Origin: Escherichia phage VerenaMeyer_Bas76
DNA: 43,821 bases
Sequence record: PQ850632.1
Reading direction: 5' to 3' (one strand)
The translations under genes were made by a program, and so were the position numbers. The notes below the pieces were generated by a model. It was not told the origin of the DNA. It saw nothing but the letters and a program-made list of their open reading frames with translations, and did not search any database. The number at the start of each line of letters is the position of its first letter. Position 1 is the stretch's first letter. Shown here piece after piece: positions 3,315 through 43,766 of the stretch.

Positions 3315-3336
3315 AGCCCCGAAAGGGGCTTTCTTA
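3315..3336 (+). terminator. stem-loop AGCCCC-GAAA-GGGGCT followed by TTCTT (attenuator-like)
   Basis: Perfect 6-bp GC stem with GAAA tetraloop and a short T-run between the portal and head morphogenesis genes. Confidence 0.4.
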
Positions 3337-3340
3337 TAGT

Positions 3341-4417
3341 ATGCTATTAACTTTAGCGCCACAGGGTTTATCTATGAGCTTACTTACATCCCTAATCAGC
3401 CATCAGATATGGCTGCAACGCACCGCATCCGGTGAGGTGAAAGACCTCACGCCGTTCATTCAGGAGATAAGGGATGAAATCAAACGGCAGGTGCTGTTAT
3501 TCGGTGACGACGGTCGCAGCACTGCGCGACTGAATAAACTGTTACGCGACCTGGAAGAAGCACTAACCGGTATTACGGGTGACTGGCAAACAAAGCTAAC
3601 AGACGACCTTAAGGAACTGGCGGCGTACGAGGCTGAGTGGAACGTAAAGACACTGACCGCCAACGTAGACGCGGAATTTGTTACGCCTACCGCTGAGCAG
3701 GTATGGGCCGCTGCCGAGTTTCAACCATTATCATTGAGCGACAAGCCCGTTGATTTCACCAAGCTGATGTCTGGATGGGGCGAAACGGAAGTAGCACGTC
3801 TTGTAACTGGAGTTAAGATGGGCTTTGTGCAAGGTCAAACCACACGGCAGATTGTTAAGAATGTTGTTGGCGCTGGTGGACTAGCCGACATCTCAGAACG
3901 TAACGCGACTACGGTAATCCGCACCGCGCTGTCCCACGTATCCAACGAGGCCCGTAACGAGACGTACCGCCAGAACGACGACATCATCGAGAAGTACGAG
4001 TGGGTGTCAACGCTTGACAGCCGCACCAGTACGATTTGCAGGGTCAGAGACGGGATGACGTGGGAAATTGGTAAGGGGCCGATGCCCCCAGCCCATCCGA
4101 ACTGCCGGTCGTGCACGGCTCCGGTAATCAGTTCCGAGTTCGACTTCCTCGATAAAGGCGCAAAACGCGCGGCTAAAGGCGCGGAAGGTGGCACTCAGGT
4201 AAGCGCAGACACCACTTACTACGAGTTCCTTAAACAACAACCGGCGTGGTTTCAGGACCAGGCGCTCGGCCCGGTGCGAGGTAAGATTTTCCGTAACAGC
4301 GGTATATCGCCGGAAGAGTTTCGCGTAATATCTGTAGATGGTTTCGGGAATCCGCTCACGCTTAAGCAGATGGCGGAACTCGATAAACGTGTTGCTGATT
4401 ATCTGAAAGGGGAATAA
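3341..4417 (+). CDS. head morphogenesis protein (SPP1 gp7 / Mu F-like)
   Basis: 358 aa, directly after portal. Composition and position match the minor head protein family usually found after portal. ATG 3374 is an alternative start. Confidence 0.6.
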   Translation: MLLTLAPQGLSMSLLTSLISHQIWLQRTASGEVKDLTPFIQEIRDEIKRQVLLFGDDGRSTARLNKLLRDLEEALTGITGDWQTKLTDDLKELAAYEAEWNVKTLTANVDAEFVTPTAEQVWAAAEFQPLSLSDKPVDFTKLMSGWGETEVARLVTGVKMGFVQGQTTRQIVKNVVGAGGLADISERNATTVIRTALSHVSNEARNETYRQNDDIIEKYEWVSTLDSRTSTICRVRDGMTWEIGKGPMPPAHPNCRSCTAPVISSEFDFLDKGAKRAAKGAEGGTQVSADTTYYEFLKQQPAWFQDQALGPVRGKIFRNSGISPEEFRVISVDGFGNPLTLKQMAELDKRVADYLKGE

Positions 4418-4878
4418 TGATGGGCTTTTTCAAAGTAACTGACGTACCGTCTCGTCGCGTAGTCCAGTACGCCCGCGTGTCTGGCTCTGGCGAGAACGTG
4501 GTATTTATTGAGGACGAAAGTGTACTCGGTACACCGGTAGATGATATGCCGTTTGCAGATAAAACCGGTATTGCGTTGCCCGCCGCCGGTATGCTTTATG
4601 AAATTCCGTATCTGGCGGACGCTGGCGACGTGTATTTCTCTGTGCAACCAAAAGACGCTGAACTGGCCGACGGCAGCGCGACTATCACTGTCGAAGTTAA
4701 AGCAGGTGAAGCGCCGTATGCACTGACCTGGTACAAAGACGGTAAGGAAGTTGTCAACGCCCCGGAAGAGGCACTTTCCTTGACGGTTAACGCAGTGGGT
4801 GAATACTTCGTTAAAGTTACCGATGCTGATGGTGTAGAGGCTGTCAGTAAAGCTGCGAAGGTCACTAAGCCCGAATGA
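4417..4878 (+). CDS. Ig-like domain protein (possible capsid decoration protein)
   Basis: 153 aa, start overlaps the previous stop (TAATGATG). The C-terminal segment YALTWYKDGKEV...GEYFVKVTDADG is an Ig-like/BIG fold signature, paralogous to the C-terminus of ORF 7880..8221. Confidence 0.55.
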   Translation: MMGFFKVTDVPSRRVVQYARVSGSGENVVFIEDESVLGTPVDDMPFADKTGIALPAAGMLYEIPYLADAGDVYFSVQPKDAELADGSATITVEVKAGEAPYALTWYKDGKEVVNAPEEALSLTVNAVGEYFVKVTDADGVEAVSKAAKVTKPE

Positions 4879-4880
4879 TA

Positions 4881-4908
4881 AAAGGCCCCATTAAGGGGCC
4901 TTAGTTTT
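4881..4908. terminator. bidirectional intrinsic terminator (AAGGCCCC-ATTA-AGGGGCCTT)
   Basis: GC-rich hairpin with T-run on the plus side (AGTTTT) and A-run/T-run on the minus side. Sits between convergent genes 4417..4878(+) and 4908..5111(-). Member of a three-copy terminator family (see 12138 and 24196). Confidence 0.65.
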
Positions 4909-5111
4909 CAACGGAATCTTGTGTTTAAATCCTGCTCGTGGACGACCCTCAGAACAGTGTCATAATCCCCGTATCTTCCAGGTTCAAATATATCTAATGC
5001 CTTGTAAGCAGACATTGCGTCAGGGAAAACCTGCAGAACCTTTTTAACCCGGCACAAGTCACCGTCGAACTCTTCATCGAACTCTTGAACTACTTCGCAA
5101 ATTGCATACAT
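4908..5111 (-). CDS. hypothetical small acidic protein (67 aa), opposite-strand island gene
   Basis: ATG at 5111..5109 preceded by GGAGGTG on the minus strand. Driven by a TTGCAC-N17-TACTAT promoter copy and ends at the bidirectional terminator. No recognisable domain. Confidence 0.5.
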   Translation of the reverse strand: MYAICEVVQEFDEEFDGDLCRVKKVLQVFPDAMSAYKALDIFEPGRYGDYDTVLRVVHEQDLNTRFR

Positions 5112-5138
5112 TTTTCACCTCCTGTTTAAGTTAACTGA

Positions 5139-5167
5139 ATAGTACCCTATTATATTGGGGTGTGCAA
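5139..5167 (-). promoter_or_regulatory. sigma70-type promoter TTGCAC-N17-TACTAT (early promoter family copy 1)
   Basis: Minus-strand reading TTGCACACCCCAATATAATAGGGTACTATTCA. Near-identical copies at 13943..13971(-), 36609..36637(+) and 38025..38053(+). Confidence 0.55.
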
Positions 5168-5233
5168 ACTATTTATTTACGTATTCCAGTTATTCCACCG
5201 AATTGTAAATGTTGGAATAAACTATTCGAATAG

Positions 5234-5262
5234 TTGACTTTTCACTAAAAATATGATAAGCT
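5234..5262 (+). promoter_or_regulatory. candidate promoter TTGACT-N17-TGaTAAGCT overlapped by palindrome ACTATTCGAATAGT
   Basis: -35 TTGACT at 5234-5239; extended -10 (TG at 5254-5255, hexamer TAAGCT at 5257-5262). The 14-bp perfect palindrome at 5221-5234 abuts the -35. Confidence 0.3.
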
Positions 5263-5440
5263 CCACCTGAGCTTGTGAAGTATGAACAAGCGACCGCGGC
5301 GCGGGCAGGTAACGGAGCGGGACGTAAGTCCTGAGTGTAGTTACGCTGACGCGTTCGGAAGGGCCATACTCTATTGCTTGTGTAAAAAGTAACAGGTTTA
5401 CTGAGATTACGCCGTTTCTATGTTTAAATGATAAGGACTA

Positions 5441-5468
5441 GCGCCCCGCTTTATGGCGGGGCTTTACT
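5441..5468 (+). terminator. intrinsic terminator/attenuator upstream of the spanin genes
   Basis: Stem GCCCCGC/GCGGGGC (5443-5449 with 5456-5462) followed by TTTACTT, 19 nt upstream of the Rz-like start. Confidence 0.5.
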
Positions 5469-5486
5469 TATCGAGAAAGGGGAAAC

Positions 5487-5873
5487 ATGAATCTTAAAGC
5501 AACTGTCGTAGCAGGAGCATGTTTCATCATCCTGGTTTACGCACACGGCATCTACCAGTATCGCAGCGGATGGAACGAAGGCCGGGCTAATCTCGTTTCG
5601 CAGCAACAGCAGAAAGCACAGGCTGAGTTAGCGAAGAAAACACAACGGCAGCAGCAGGATGAATCGAAGGCCGCCGCCGCTGACAACGAAGGCAAGACGA
5701 AATCAGAGGTGATTACCCGTGAAGTCGTTAAGTACATTAAAACGCCTGGTCGCAGTGTGTGCGCTTTTGACCCTGAGCGCGTGCAGCTCAAGTCCCGCGC
5801 CGTCGCAAACGCCAACTCCATCCCCGGATACGACGATGATGCAGCCGCCGTGCAAACTGGCACCGCCAAGTAG
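5487..5873 (+). CDS. i-spanin (Rz-like inner-membrane spanin)
   Basis: 128 aa. N-terminal transmembrane anchor (ATVVAGACFIILVYA) followed by a charged, Q/A/K-rich periplasmic region. Contains an out-of-frame lipoprotein gene, the Rz/Rz1 hallmark. Confidence 0.7.
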   Translation: MNLKATVVAGACFIILVYAHGIYQYRSGWNEGRANLVSQQQQKAQAELAKKTQRQQQDESKAAAADNEGKTKSEVITREVVKYIKTPGRSVCAFDPERVQLKSRAVANANSIPGYDDDAAAVQTGTAK

Positions 5874-5982
5874 CGACGCCGACGAGGATTTGGCTATCGA
5901 CGTTCAGAACGCTGAATGTGTACGGCAACTGCGTCTGAAAGTGTTCATGTTGCAGGATTACGTGAGGAATATTCTGGAATAG
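5719..5982 (+). CDS. o-spanin (Rz1-like outer-membrane lipoprotein)
   Basis: 87 aa, GTG start after AGAGGTGA, in the +1 frame overlapping the 3' part of the i-spanin gene and extending past it. Signal peptide with lipobox LTLSAC, followed by a Pro-rich mature region. Confidence 0.7.
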   Translation: MKSLSTLKRLVAVCALLTLSACSSSPAPSQTPTPSPDTTMMQPPCKLAPPSSDADEDLAIDVQNAECVRQLRLKVFMLQDYVRNILE

Positions 5983-6064
5983 TTGCCTTGCATGTTGGAA
6001 TAATTTATTCTTGACATGTAAATCCGGGTGGCCCGGATTCCAACGTCCAGGGGACATACTGACT

Positions 6065-6766
6065 ATGAATCGTTTTTTACGTTATCCGTTCCAGGAAGAA
6101 GCTGGAGCAGAAGATAAAGCTGGTGGCGGTGACGCTCCTAAAATGTTCACCGCTGAAGAAGTTCAGGCGCTGATTGAGAAAGAAGTTGCCGGGCTTAAGG
6201 CTAATCAGGAAGCATTGTTGGCGGAGAAGAAAGAAGCCGCTCGCAAAGCAAAAGAGGCCGAAGAAGAACGGCAGCGCGCGCACCAGGAGGCGTTAAAGGC
6301 CGCCGGTAAGATGGACGAGTTTGAAAAGACGATTCGTAGCCAGTATGACCCGGTGTTAGCCGAGAAAGATGGCCGCATCTCCAGAATGGCAGAGCGTATC
6401 CTCGGCAGCGAACGTAAAGCGGTGCTAGGCTCTTTCGCGGGTGACTTTATTACCCCAGAAGCAGTGGACATTCTTGCGCCGTTCGTTAAGACTGAGTTCG
6501 AAGGCGATGATGTGGTTACTAAGTTTGTTGGTGCAGACGGTAACGTAATCACGACTGACCCGGAACAGTTCCGCAAATACCTGCGCGAACACAAGGCGTT
6601 TTCGCATTTGATCAAAGCAAATGCAGCTTCCGGCGGCGGGGCTTCCGGTAGCAAAGGCGGCGGGGCCGCACCAGCGTTTAAAGACATGAGTGAAGCAGAG
6701 CGTTTAGCCCTGTATAAATCGAACCCTGCCGAATTTGAACGGCAACTTAAAGCCCTGAGGAAATAA
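6065..6766 (+). CDS. scaffolding protein (putative)
   Basis: Highly charged, Ala/Glu/Lys-rich coiled-coil-like protein immediately upstream of the major capsid gene. ATG 6065 preferred over the TTG at 6011, which lies inside a hairpin. Confidence 0.55.
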   Translation: MNRFLRYPFQEEAGAEDKAGGGDAPKMFTAEEVQALIEKEVAGLKANQEALLAEKKEAARKAKEAEEERQRAHQEALKAAGKMDEFEKTIRSQYDPVLAEKDGRISRMAERILGSERKAVLGSFAGDFITPEAVDILAPFVKTEFEGDDVVTKFVGADGNVITTDPEQFRKYLREHKAFSHLIKANAASGGGASGSKGGGAAPAFKDMSEAERLALYKSNPAEFERQLKALRK

Positions 6767-7818: not shown

Positions 7819-7834
7819 GGTTAAGCTATAATCG

Positions 7835-7858
7835 AGAGGGACTTCGGTCCCTCTTTTC
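7835..7858 (+). terminator. intrinsic terminator after the major capsid gene
   Basis: 8-bp stem AGAGGGAC/GTCCCTCT with loop TTCG and a TTTT run. Confidence 0.6.
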
Positions 7859-13587: not shown

Positions 13588-13914
13588 CTATTTACTTTCT
13601 GCGCCTATCGCCCACCCTGTCATTACCATTTGCAGACGGGTGGCTGTCAGTAGGCTATAGAAAGCATCTCCGTTTTTCTCTACCGAACGTATCACTGTGT
13701 AGGTTACGGCCTGCGGGGGTAGGCCCGATTTACCGACATCTACGGCGGCCTCGCATTCACGGACTGTGGAGTCCTTAAATGCCTTTACAATAGTAGGGTC
13801 GGCTTTATCAAGCACACCAGAAGTCATAAGAACAGATTCACTAAATACCTGTTCGCACGGGGCTCCAAAAGTAGCAAAAGACATAAAACCCAGAGCTAGT
13901 ACTAATTTACGCAT
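13588..13914 (-). CDS. secreted/periplasmic small protein with signal peptide (108 aa)
   Basis: N-terminus MRKLVLALGFMSFATFGA is a classic signal peptide. ATG preceded by GAGGAA. First gene downstream of promoter copy 2. Confidence 0.55.
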   Translation of the reverse strand: MRKLVLALGFMSFATFGAPCEQVFSESVLMTSGVLDKADPTIVKAFKDSTVRECEAAVDVGKSGLPPQAVTYTVIRSVEKNGDAFYSLLTATRLQMVMTGWAIGAESK

Positions 13915-13942
13915 AATTATTTCCTCAGTAAGTTACATGTGA

Positions 13943-13971
13943 ATAGTACCCTATTATATTGGGGTGTGCAA
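13943..13971 (-). promoter_or_regulatory. sigma70-type promoter TTGCAC-N17-TACTAT (early promoter family copy 2)
   Basis: Minus-strand reading TTGCACACCCCAATATAATAGGGTACTATTCA, identical over about 30 nt to the copy at 5139..5167. Confidence 0.55.
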
Positions 13972-33006: not shown

Positions 33007-33030
33007 TGGGCTTTTCTAAAATAATTAATA

Positions 33031-33039
33031 TGGTACTAT
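33031..33039 (+). promoter_or_regulatory. candidate extended -10 promoter (TGgTACTAT) for the XRE-type HTH gene
   Basis: TG at 33031-33032 and hexamer TACTAT at 33034-33039 followed by the ACTATTCA box; no good -35. Confidence 0.35.
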
Positions 33040-33070
33040 TCACATATCAACTGACTAAGGAGTAATTGAC

Positions 33071-36608: not shown

Positions 36609-36637
36609 TTGCACACCCCAATATAATAGGATACTAT
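36609..36637 (+). promoter_or_regulatory. sigma70-type promoter TTGCAC-N17-TACTAT (early promoter family copy 3)
   Basis: TTGCACACCCCAATATAATAGGATACTATTCA followed by the leader CGAAACGAGACAGAGGAG. Confidence 0.55.
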
Positions 36638-36662
36638 TCACTTATCGAAACGAGACAGAGGA

Positions 36663-38024: not shown

Positions 38025-38053
38025 TTGCACACTAAGATAGAATAGGCTACTAT
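38025..38053 (+). promoter_or_regulatory. sigma70-type promoter TTGCAC-N17-TACTAT (early promoter family copy 4)
   Basis: TTGCACACTAAGATAGAATAGGCTACTATTCA followed by the leader ACACAAACGAGAGGAGAGACGGAAG. Confidence 0.55.
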
Positions 38054-38084
38054 TCATTTACACAAACGAGAGGAGAGACGGAAG

Positions 38085-40267: not shown

Positions 40268-40576
40268 TTGGATAAATTTACTGAAACAGTGACAGGCTGG
40301 CTTCTCGCTGCCGCACTAGCCGGAGGGGTAATCGGACTAAGGCAACATAAGTCCGCTATTTCCGGCCCTATCGACGGCTTCTGCTTTATTGCAACTGGCT
40401 TCACTTGCGCCGTATTTGGCGCACCTCTCGCAGCTCAATGGTTTGGCATTACCGGGGAACGCGAGATAGCGGGCCTCGGATTCATCATTGCCATTCTCTG
40501 GATGCCTATCTATTCCCGCCTTTCTGGCATCGTATCGGGCGGCGATATTGCCCGCCCAGGAGGACCACATGACTGA
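40268..40576 (+). CDS. holin (putative, three transmembrane segments)
   Basis: 102 aa, TTG start 6 nt after GGAGGA. Three hydrophobic segments. Immediately upstream of a second membrane protein and the endolysin. Confidence 0.55.
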   Translation: MDKFTETVTGWLLAAALAGGVIGLRQHKSAISGPIDGFCFIATGFTCAVFGAPLAAQWFGITGEREIAGLGFIIAILWMPIYSRLSGIVSGGDIARPGGPHD

Positions 40577-40841
40577 GCTATTCTGGTTTGCCGTAATGCT
40601 GGCAATCGGTGGCGCATCGCTGTTTAATGTATACCACCCCAGTGTTGACGATGGGTTATTTGGTCGGGTGCTCTACATCCTGACTGCTATCGTTTGCGCT
40701 GCCGGATGTATTCACCTGTTACAGGGCAGCATGTCTCCGACGCTGCCTGAGACATTAATCACATTAGTTGCGCTGCGCCAGATTCGTCAGGCGTGGCTGT
40801 CATACGGAGGACATAAGCGTGTCTCGAAACATTTCAGATAA
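40569..40841 (+). CDS. second lysis-cassette membrane protein (holin/antiholin partner candidate)
   Basis: 90 aa, ATG after GGAGGA. Two hydrophobic segments. Overlaps the holin 3' end and the endolysin 5' end. Confidence 0.45.
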   Translation: MTELFWFAVMLAIGGASLFNVYHPSVDDGLFGRVLYILTAIVCAAGCIHLLQGSMSPTLPETLITLVALRQIRQAWLSYGGHKRVSKHFR

Positions 40842-41304
40842 TGGGTTGCATTTCACCGCTGCGTTCGAGGGATTCCGAGGTACTGCGTATCGTGCTACGC
40901 CGAACGAGAAGTACCCTACTATTGGCTACGGAAGCTATGGCCCTCATGTGTATGAAGGGCAGAAGATTACGAAGGGGCAGGGCCTCCTGTTACTGAATCG
41001 TGATATGGCTAAGGCCGTAGCTGCGGTTGACGCAGCAGCACACCATTCATTGACACAGGCACAGTTCGATGCAGTGTGCGACCTGGTATACAACGCAGGT
41101 GCTGGTGTGATTGCCGCTACCACCGGCACGGGTAAGGCACTGCGTTCTGGTGATATTGCAACGCTGCGGGCTAAGCTGGCGCTGTTCATCAACCAGAACG
41201 GCAAACCGTTACTTGGCCTGCGTCGCCGTACTGCCGGTCGTCTGGCGCTGTTCGACGGTAAGCCGTGGCAAGAGGCGGAGGCTATCGGGAGGGCTGTTAA
41301 ATGA
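40819..41304 (+). CDS. endolysin (lysozyme-like, glycoside hydrolase family 24-type motifs)
   Basis: AFEGFRGTAYRATPNEKYPTIGYGS matches the catalytic Glu region and conserved TIGYG of T4-type lysozymes. GTG 40819 after GGAGGA. The ORF track start at 40768 is probably too far upstream. Confidence 0.7.
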   Translation: MSRNISDNGLHFTAAFEGFRGTAYRATPNEKYPTIGYGSYGPHVYEGQKITKGQGLLLLNRDMAKAVAAVDAAAHHSLTQAQFDAVCDLVYNAGAGVIAATTGTGKALRSGDIATLRAKLALFINQNGKPLLGLRRRTAGRLALFDGKPWQEAEAIGRAVK

Positions 41305-41431
41305 TGGACGAATACGAAGGCGTTTAGTAAACTTATCCCTACGCTGTTTGTGCTTGCATACTAAGCCCCGGTAAACCCGAAGCAGCAGCCCAAGCGGTGG
41401 AGACTGCGTAGGGTTCAAGGGCTTATGGCCA

Positions 41432-41462
41432 AAACCCGGACCGCAAATCCGGGTTTTATTTT
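41432..41462 (+). terminator. intrinsic terminator after the endolysin gene
   Basis: AACCCGGA-CCGCAAA-TCCGGGTT followed by TTATTTT. Confidence 0.6.
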
Positions 41463-41467
41463 ACCAA

Positions 41468-41496
41468 TTGACACCTAAGACTAATCCGACGATACT
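41468..41496 (+). promoter_or_regulatory. candidate promoter TTGACA-N17-GATACT
   Basis: Perfect -35 TTGACA at 41468-41473; weak -10 GATACT at 41491-41496. About 40 nt upstream of a strong terminator. Confidence 0.3.
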
Positions 41497-41535
41497 TAAA
41501 TCACCTCCTGCTCCATCCCTCTGCTCTCCAGTTTT

Positions 41536-41569
41536 ATCCCGGCCCTGACCCAGCCGGGATTTTTTTTTA
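41536..41569 (+). terminator. strong intrinsic terminator (ATCCCGGC-CCTGACCCA-GCCGGGAT plus T9)
   Basis: 8-bp GC-rich stem followed by nine T. Confidence 0.7.
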
Positions 41570-41590
41570 TCTATTTTCTGCAATGACTAG

Positions 41591-41619
41591 TTGACTATTA
41601 CCATCGACCCTATTATATT
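41591..41619 (+). promoter_or_regulatory. sigma70-type promoter TTGACT-N17-TATATT
   Basis: -35 at 41591-41596, -10 at 41614-41619, followed by the leader CGACAACGAGAACGGGGTAGAGAGAA and ATG 41654. Confidence 0.5.
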
Positions 41620-43742: not shown

Positions 43743-43766
43743 AAGCCCTCTACGGAGGGCTTTTCT
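43743..43766 (+). terminator. intrinsic terminator (AAGCCCTC-TACG-GAGGGCTT plus TTCTG)
   Basis: Hairpin directly after the last early gene. Confidence 0.55.

Follow-up and report, generated by a model that had tools for sequence, protein, structure and literature searches.

Overlapped spanin genes of the kind considered here were grouped by Kongari et al. (2018) as the 'Jersey' family, whose 27 listed members include K1G, K1H and K1ind1-3, all of them Kagunavirus phages, as well as Jersey, SETP3 and SE2 (PMC6139136). The Jersey spanins share a 155-bp overlap and have o-spanin cysteines constant at positions 45 and 67, and the C-terminal domain of the family's o-spanins has predicted secondary-structure elements, whereas lambda Rz1 is described as unstructured (PMC6139136). 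Spanin genes lying apart from the remaining lysis genes have also been described: PseT.3/PseT.2 of T4 have no linkage to its holin gene (t) or its endolysin gene (e) (PMC6139136), the Schulenberg announcement states explicitly that the spanins are separated from holin/antiholin/endolysin (PMC6763661), and a Jerseyvirus paper assigns these PHROGs to genes 9-10 and 63-65 (PMC9409062). For the Guernseyvirinae, earlier descriptions cover the gene pair, its family, the overlapped architecture and the location away from the holin-endolysin cassette, and a structured leader upstream of the spanins may be the sole new element reported here. We searched the literature for experiments on any member of the Jersey-type spanin family and found none.

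The spanin pair of VerenaMeyer_Bas76 and its relatives

The window, that is, the whole stretch of 43,821 nt from Escherichia phage VerenaMeyer_Bas76 that was analysed, has a map that starts at the terminase gene, as does the circular record of Escherichia phage MarieHeimVoegtlin_Bas70 (Bas70), to which positions 5200-6100 are 99.4% identical; the window is therefore the complete genome of a Kagunavirus, in the subfamily Guernseyvirinae, and its start at the small terminase gene is a matter of convention. Positions 5200-6100 match 329 phage records, mostly of Salmonella and Escherichia phages, and among the matches listed the spanins and the scaffold protein are mostly annotated. We assign a probability of about 93% to the reading that 5487-5982 encodes the two-component spanin of a Kagunavirus, its function being proposed by analogy with lambda and T4. 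Our analysis establishes how the two genes are laid out, which sorting signals their products carry, which family they belong to, that they are under purifying selection and that their position is conserved. The coordinates of all features are collected in Table 1.

Table 1. Features of the spanin locus, the lysis cassette and the regions around them in the VerenaMeyer_Bas76 genome
Feature	Position	Strand	Basis and remarks
32-nt repeat	5136-5167; 13940-13971; inverted 36609-36640		TATAAT in each copy, pointing into adjacent small genes
Hairpin	3315-3330	+	Folding
Hairpin terminator after Hoc-like gene	4882-4902	.	Folding; annotated terminator in Shashou; closes terminase-to-decoration unit
Small antisense gene (67 aa)	4908-5111	antisense	ORF
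Palindrome TGGAATAATTTATTC (TGGAATAA-N2-TATTC)	5213-5227; 5996-6010, right after o-spanin stop		TTGAC hexamer beside each copy
Promoter-like site TTGACT-N14-TGaTAAGCT (extended -10)	5234-5262	+	Inferred from sequence; upstream of leader and spanins
Three-tier RNA hairpin in leader	5291-5366 (pairs 5294-5358)	+	Conserved; followed by invariant AAGGGCC
G+C-rich terminator-like hairpin, then UUUACUU	5443-5462	+	-17.9 kcal/mol, z -4.3; ends 25 nt before i-spanin ATG
i-Spanin gene	5487-5873	+	ATG start, 128 aa; ORF and translation, phrog_2536 (E 6.6e-57), hydropathy
Shine-Dalgarno GAGGTGAT of o-spanin, within i-spanin gene	5706-5713	+	Read from sequence; ribosome-binding site annotated at equivalent site in Shashou
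o-Spanin gene	5719-5982	+	GTG start, 87-aa precursor, 66-aa mature lipoprotein (predicted); phrog_1267 (E 3.6e-20), phrog_5672 (E 4.4e-30)
Lipobox L-S-A-C codons	5773-5784	+	Sequence and homologous loci
o-Spanin-to-scaffold region	5996-6039	+	Palindrome, TTGACA 6011-6016, conserved hairpin 6021-6039
Seventh hairpin/terminator, after capsid gene	7834-7855	+	Folding
Holin (102 aa)	40268-40576	+	phrog_2359, E 1.4e-31
Second holin/antiholin (90 aa from ATG 40569)	40569-40841	+	phrog_2508, E 4.6e-33; Shashou note
Soluble GH24 endolysin (161 aa from GTG 40819)	40819-41304	+	PF00959, E 3.7e-26
Two strong terminator hairpins closing lysis-cassette unit	41431-41457, 41536-41560	+	-14.0, -13.8 kcal/mol; U-runs after both
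Hairpin before terminase	43743-43762	+	Folding

In the i-spanin, Lys4 is followed by hydrophobic residues 5-23 (Kyte-Doolittle 19-residue mean 1.85), which form a single N-terminal transmembrane anchor; beyond residue 30 the hydropathy maximum is 0.23 and there is no second hydrophobic segment, and 29% of the remaining 105 residues, the periplasmic part, are charged. Cys92 of this periplasmic domain is invariant across 49 distinct homologues. A single-sequence AF2 model predicts one continuous helix at residues 3-64 (block-mean pLDDT 77-93) and is confident for residues 1-64 only, the remainder being too poor for a fold search. The o-spanin gene lies in the +1 frame of the i-spanin gene ((5719-5487) mod 3 = 1), and its overlap of 155 bp places the pair in the overlapped class; five bases separate the Shine-Dalgarno sequence GAGGTGAT from the GTG. 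The o-spanin N-terminus reads MKSLSTLKRLVAVCALLTLSAC, with basic residues K2, K8 and R9, a hydrophobic core and the lipobox L-S-A-C22, so that the signal sequence is MKSLSTLKRLVAVCALLTLSA, followed by Cys22 as the predicted lipidation site. Residue +2 is Ser23 and not Asp, as expected of an outer-membrane lipoprotein signal, and 9 of the first 30 mature residues (30%) are Pro. Cys45 and Cys67 are conserved in the homologous loci listed, and periplasmic cysteines for homotypic disulfides are therefore present in both proteins, Cys92 serving in the i-spanin. When the 961 start-specific ORFs that encode 40-250 aa, taken from all six frames, were screened for lipoprotein signals, the o-spanin was the only credible candidate in the genome. 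The original prediction of an i-spanin with an N-terminal transmembrane anchor and a charged periplasmic domain, overlapped in the +1 frame by a Pro-rich o-spanin lipoprotein with a lipobox, is borne out at each of these points, and the pair that it named agrees with the curated Shashou annotation and with the published 'Jersey' family (PMC6139136).

By sequence and architecture we place the pair in the 'Jersey' family, with which it has in common the 128-aa i-spanin, the 87-aa o-spanin, the 155-bp overlap, Cys45/Cys67 and the phage subfamily; we see no difference of substance, and VerenaMeyer_Bas76 is one more member. Both proteins match PHROG families annotated as 'Rz-like spanin' (Table 1). 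The expert-curated (CPT) record of Shashou (MK931440), which is 93% identical here (a nucleotide difference of about 7%), has at homologous coordinates an i-spanin gene whose product has a single transmembrane domain and an o-spanin gene whose product carries a lipobox, each with a ribosome-binding site, although its lipobox is LASC and the Cys lies one residue later than in VerenaMeyer_Bas76. Searches of Pfam (E up to 0.1) returned only DUF2514 for the i-spanin, at E 0.0074 and below the cut-off, and nothing for the o-spanin; the lambda Rz and Rz1 Pfam models matched neither spanin, and in NCBIfam the only match was P2 Rz1-like LysC (E 0.014, below the cut-off). The pair is thus an analogue of Rz/Rz1 and not a sequence relative, and the label 'Rz/Rz1-like' in the original prediction is apt for the presumed function and not for the sequence family. 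The inferred mechanism, the topology, the +1-frame lipoprotein gene, the periplasmic cysteines and the Pro-rich o-spanin are all as in lambda; in contrast to lambda, the genes are overlapped instead of embedded and do not adjoin the holin and endolysin genes, and, unlike in Rz1, the C-terminal domain of the o-spanin is conserved and strongly selected. With T4 PseT.3/PseT.2 the pair shares the lack of linkage to holin and endolysin and the two periplasmic cysteines of the o-spanin, whereas T4 has a separated architecture, an i-spanin without periplasmic Cys and an unrelated sequence family.

Lipidation, complex formation and membrane disruption are taken over from the work on lambda and T4. On that model, the i-spanin (128 aa) would be held in the inner membrane through its N-terminal helix, and the 87-aa o-spanin precursor would be exported, lipidated at Cys22, cleaved by signal peptidase II and, having Ser at +2, sorted to the outer membrane. 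The C-terminal domains of the two would bind to each other across the periplasm, and homodimers might be locked by disulfides at Cys92 of the i-spanin and at Cys45 and Cys67 of the o-spanin. Until the holin (40268-40576) allows the peptidoglycan to be destroyed by the soluble GH24 endolysin, such complexes would build up without harm; they would then disrupt the outer membrane, probably through its fusion with the inner membrane.

Position of the pair and transcription units

The original prediction placed a holin, a second membrane protein and the endolysin at 40268-41304, and PHROG or Pfam matches were obtained for all three. The Shashou homologue of the holin is noted as having three transmembrane domains. 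The phrog_2508 match begins at residue 28 of ORF 40488-40841, so that 40569 is the likely start of the second holin/antiholin; the endolysin ORF spans 40768-41304, its start at 40819 was placed by analogy with the Bas70 annotation, and its translation has no N-terminal hydrophobic (SAR) segment. Neither the ORFs beside the endolysin nor the genome-wide lipoprotein screen yielded a second spanin, a unimolecular spanin or a lipoprotein there.

The spanins had been predicted to lie between the head morphogenesis and scaffold genes. The scaffold gene (6065-6766) is indeed the downstream neighbour; upstream, the adjacent gene is not the head-morphogenesis gene but an Ig-domain Hoc-like decoration gene (4417-4878). 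The predicted distance of about 35 kb to the lysis cassette holds for the linear map only (34-35 kb) and is an artefact of the opening point; on the circular map 8,003 bases separate the endolysin stop from the i-spanin start, on the same strand, so that the loci are separate as claimed, at 8.0 kb. Between them on the circle lie small genes and the terminase, portal, Mu-F-like and Hoc-like genes, and relatives have the same layout. Kagunavirus, Jerseyvirus and Serratia phage Smarc3 all have the pair at this position between decoration and scaffold genes; in Shashou and Schulenberg, too, the i- and o-spanin genes lie between an Ig-domain head gene and the scaffold gene, with holin/antiholin and endolysin elsewhere. 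A contiguous holin-endolysin-spanin cassette is found neither here nor in the relatives, and the predicted split of lysis functions is a conserved trait of the subfamily among relatives (PMC6763661). The unlinked spanins provide, with T4, another example of lysis genes that do not need to cluster.

Seven stable hairpins were obtained by folding the + strand, and on the circle six of these fall between the lysis cassette and the spanins; the Shashou record marks several as terminators, and promoter-like sites come after several. These terminator hairpins and promoter-like sites make it likely that the two loci belong to separate transcription units. The lysis cassette is the end of a small-gene block starting near 36.6 kb, and the spanins are the head of the scaffold-capsid block. 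Because the spanins come first in a putative unit with scaffold and major capsid that extends to the terminator at 7834-7855, they are most likely made with the late head proteins, the proposed co-transcription resting on sequence motifs.

The same six hairpins, the promoter-like sites after several of them and the placing of the two loci at the end of one block and the head of another could also be read as signs that, as the original prediction presumed, the spanins are expressed at clearly different times from the holin and endolysin, the split then having regulatory meaning. In lambda, spanin complexes are inactive until the peptidoglycan has been removed. Spanins that are inert until the wall is degraded need not match the holin and endolysin in timing, and no difference in timing is needed. 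Moreover, in the RNA-seq time-course of K1B4, the sole one that we found for the Guernseyvirinae, the lysozyme, Mu-F-like and capsid genes all fall in one 'middle' class (PMC12645636); the K1B4 paper and its supplements give no temporal class for the spanin genes (PMC12645636). We consider a clearly different schedule rather unlikely, and synthesis of the spanins together with the late head proteins remains our preferred reading.

Selection on the two genes and the start of the o-spanin

The comparative set comprised 55 related loci, and the spanin pair was found in 55/55. Compared with 48 viral-contig loci from the same phage group, the spanin proteins are 63-98% identical. Calculated on 42 distinct gapless homologous loci (Nei-Gojobori), pN/pS was 0.30 for the part read only as i-spanin and 0.11 for the part read only as o-spanin (the C-terminal 36 codons), each in its own frame, against 1.06-2.5 for off-frame controls. 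In the overlap the i frame is dominant (0.40 versus 1.03), and in the linker part both frames are constrained (0.53 and 0.68). The signal-peptide codons of the o-spanin behave like a passenger frame (pN/pS 1.65), yet the lipobox is always kept: it reads LSAC, LASC, LSGC/LNGC (Jerseyvirus) or, in the Serratia phage, LSAC. In the LASC sub-lineage the Cys lies one residue later with the length unchanged, and variants with separated spanin genes have replacement lipobox signals (ITGC, VIGC). The o-spanin start codon toggles between GTG and ATG at one fixed position among homologous loci. Taken together, the retention of the lipobox, the toggling of the start codon and the pN/pS values in own frames indicate that both spanin genes are real and that the long form of the o-spanin is the correct one.

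Many public Guernseyvirinae records, including that of Bas70, the closest relative, annotate a 47-aa 'Rz-like spanin' from an internal ATG, a fragment without a lipoprotein signal, and the phrog_5672 profile has 47 positions; it could accordingly be held that the downstream gene is only the 47-aa ORF 5839-5982, encoding a soluble peptide without an export signal, and that there is no true o-spanin. We regard this as highly improbable, since the 40 codons upstream are open in the loci examined, begin at one position with a start codon that is either GTG or ATG, are preceded by a strong Shine-Dalgarno sequence and always include a lipobox, and curated records (Shashou) carry the long form. Indeed, short forms of this kind are a known gene-calling error, 64 o-spanins having wrong starts and 196 having been missed in public genomes (Kongari et al., PMC6139136). 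In practice, the 87-aa o-spanin should replace the 47-aa form in those records. Finally, we give almost no credence to the idea that the pair is a membrane-protein/lipoprotein 'moron' (for example, for superinfection exclusion) in a variable head-module slot and has no part in lysis: its location outside the lysis cassette, its own promoter-like site and an adjoining slot with an antisense gene that varies between phages would suit such an element, but the pair is present in every related locus examined, resembles typical spanins in architecture and Cys pattern and is joined by no other outer-membrane-disruption candidate in the genome, and functional T4 spanins are likewise unlinked from holin and endolysin (PMC6139136).

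The leader region upstream of the spanins

Between the promoter-like site and the spanin pair lies a putative structured leader RNA (5263-5470). Three divergent genome types (Kaguna-, Jersey- and 'pink'-type) retain the promoter-like motif of 5234-5262; a simple promoter scanner did not call the site. The leaders of Kaguna- and Jersey-type genomes have the same fold with helices 2 and 3 entirely different in sequence, and G-U pairs in helix 1 restrict the fold to one strand, an indication that it is formed by RNA. A covariance model of the leader (R1) matched once in every related locus in which the upstream region is included, the Serratia locus excepted, and gave a single marginal match (E 0.055) on 41 unrelated loci. 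In the model-fitted alignment, which leans towards structure, 86% of cells are paired as compared with 25-45% when partners are slid, and the observed covariation was reached by 0/500 shuffles, again on an alignment that leans towards structure. In the MAFFT alignment as well as the model-based one, the inner helices of the Jersey-type leaders are wrongly placed, so that the pair counts for helices 2 and 3 are understated and the shared fold is shown better by separate folds. The hairpin at 5443-5462 has compensatory changes in relatives (C-G, A-U, U-A and G-C). Most of the 189 matching records have leaders that are 95-99% identical, and between VSt10 and VerenaMeyer_Bas76 the leader is 96.7% identical as against only 74.8% for the spanin genes. 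Against Rfam 15 the whole window had no match that reached the gathering score, and a search of 4850-6100 relaxed to E 1 was likewise negative.

Two further candidates from this region were set aside. A degenerate leader pattern, ACCGCGG-N44-62-TCGGAAGG, proved too unspecific when run against viral contigs, since among the matches listed most were unrelated contigs; these served as the negative controls for model R1. The 36-aa ORF 5282-5392, which the Bas70 and Shashou records annotate, is unlikely to be a gene: frameshifts or truncations disrupt it in four related loci, its start is lost in two, and it does not occur in Jersey- and pink-type genomes.

For comparison, the pR'-6S RNA-tR' region of lambda and the put RNA of HK022 are systems to which the leader may be likened. 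The arrangement of a promoter, a leader of about 200 nt and a terminator upstream of lysis or head genes recalls them, and the leader here likewise contains a conserved stem-loop RNA. It differs from them in having no sequence or Rfam similarity and in that no Q-like family was found: among 20 small rightward ORFs no Q-family antiterminator was detected (Pfam E up to 0.01), and the Bas70 and Shashou annotations list none. Most transcripts could be halted ahead of the spanins by the hairpin at 5443-5462, and it is tempting to speculate that the leader controls read-through, either by attenuation or by antitermination of a put-like or 6S-like kind. Alternatively, the leader could be a small RNA in its own right, about 200 nt long. 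Our tentative suggestion, to which we would attach less than even odds, is that a late unit of spanins, scaffold and major capsid, with the spanins as its first cistron, is gated by an undescribed cis-acting RNA. If the leader does control read-through, the timing and amount of spanins and head proteins would be set separately from those of holin and endolysin, and it would offer a handle on late-gene control in a model phage group (the BASEL collection) and synthetic-biology chassis.

The 608 bases from the Hoc-like gene to the i-spanin gene hold the antisense gene, repeats, the promoter-like site, the leader and the terminator-like hairpin, and the region upstream of the i-spanin also contains TATTCC/GGAATA repeats. 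In the slot occupied here by the antisense gene, 'pink' has a gene of 59 aa and VSt10 one of 179 aa, and none is annotated in Shashou or wksl3. On the far side of the spanin pair, the arms of the hairpin at 6021-6039 covary among relatives (ATCCGGG/CCCGGAT, CACCGGG/CCCGGTG and TACCGGG/CCCGGTA).

o-Spanin start site and variant spanin architectures

In many public records, including that of the closest relative, Bas70 (CDS Bas70_0009), the o-spanin is entered as a 47-aa ORF that begins at an internal ATG (5839-5982) and carries neither a signal peptide nor a lipobox, and it is on this short form that the phage protein family phrog_5672 is based. The supported form of the o-spanin is the 87-aa product that starts at the GTG at position 5719. 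Between sub-lineages the position of the lipobox cysteine differs by one residue with no change in length (comparison loci L002, L022-L033 and others versus 5773-5787 in the window), giving the two forms LTLSAC-SSS and STMLASC-SS, and the shift falls within the stretch that also codes for the i-spanin.

Two of the related loci have variant arrangements of the pair. Locus L177 (Escherichia phage vB_VIPECOMC04, PQ423993; 401-1465) is a natural conversion of an overlapped to a separated architecture: the i-spanin and o-spanin genes are split by an inserted HNH endonuclease gene, the i-spanin is of 119 aa with a new C-terminus, the o-spanin has acquired a new signal sequence (MRLPILLLVIGC), and the former i-spanin C-terminus persists as a remnant ORF. 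Conversion between these two architectures has been treated for T5 and Shivani (Kongari et al., PMC6139136), and L177 is a case of the same kind. In locus L043 (2501-3089), which encodes an i-spanin of 118 aa and an o-spanin whose N-terminus is unrelated (MNKLFLSAVIIGITGC), the two genes are separated or barely overlapping, an arrangement that resembles the one reported for FSL SP-031.

Structured leader upstream of the spanin genes

Behind the promoter-like site TTGACT-N14-TGaTAAGCT lies a leader of approximately 200 nt, present in one copy per genome, in which the motif AAGGGCC is invariant and in which compensatory changes are seen across Kaguna-, Jersey- and pink-type genomes. An Rfam search with the leader region gave no match. 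We suggest that it may act as a cis-regulatory leader or as a small RNA. The 36-aa 'hypothetical protein' ORF, which sits within the structured leader, is probably not a gene: frameshifts or truncations affect it in loci L012, L016, L025 and L032, its start is gone in L020 and L033, and Jersey-type and pink-type genomes lack it.

Coordinates of features around the spanin genes and elsewhere in the genome
Feature	Coordinates	Strand	Remarks
32-nt repeat	5136-5167, 13940-13971, 36609-36640 (inverted)		Copies 100% and 97% identical
32-nt repeat targets	4908-5111; 13588-13914; from ~36660	Minus; minus; rightward	Third target is a small-gene block
Small antisense gene, 67 aa	4908-5111	Minus	phrog_27256
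TATTCC/GGAATA repeats and palindrome TGGAATAA-N2-TATTC	5182-5235 and 5996-6016		
Promoter-like site and leader	5234-5470		Conserved
36-aa ORF	5282-5392		Annotated in Bas70 and Shashou
Three-tier hairpin	5294-5358		Within leader
Terminator-like hairpin	5443-5462		Within leader
Hairpin without U-run	6021-6039		~25 nt upstream of scaffold start codon
Region of promoter-like site between two strong terminators	41468-41572		Downstream of endolysin

Repeats and neighbouring elements

The TATTCC/GGAATA repeats and the palindrome lie upstream of the leader promoter and again directly behind the o-spanin stop codon, with a TTGAC hexamer adjoining each copy of the palindrome, and together they look like a putative operator for a DNA-binding protein. 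The 32-nt repeat includes a TATAAT that at all three copies is directed into the neighbouring small genes, and partial copies occur near 33026-33042, 38041-38056 and 41607-41619; the repeats probably constitute a promoter family of the strong, early type.

The small antisense gene occupies a variable slot, flanked on one side by the Hoc-like gene and on the other by the spanin leader. In VSt10 this slot is filled by a gene of 179 aa and in 'pink' by one of 59 aa; Shashou and wksl3 have no annotated gene there. The hairpin ahead of the scaffold gene mirrors in its placement the hairpin before the i-spanin gene, and is kept with covarying arms (variants ATCCGGG, CACCGGG and TACCGGG) in Kagunavirus, Jerseyvirus and Serratia phage Smarc3. 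Beyond the endolysin gene, the second terminator lies approximately 45 nt further on from the promoter-like site TTGACA-17-GATACT, and a short non-coding transcript of <100 nt could arise here.
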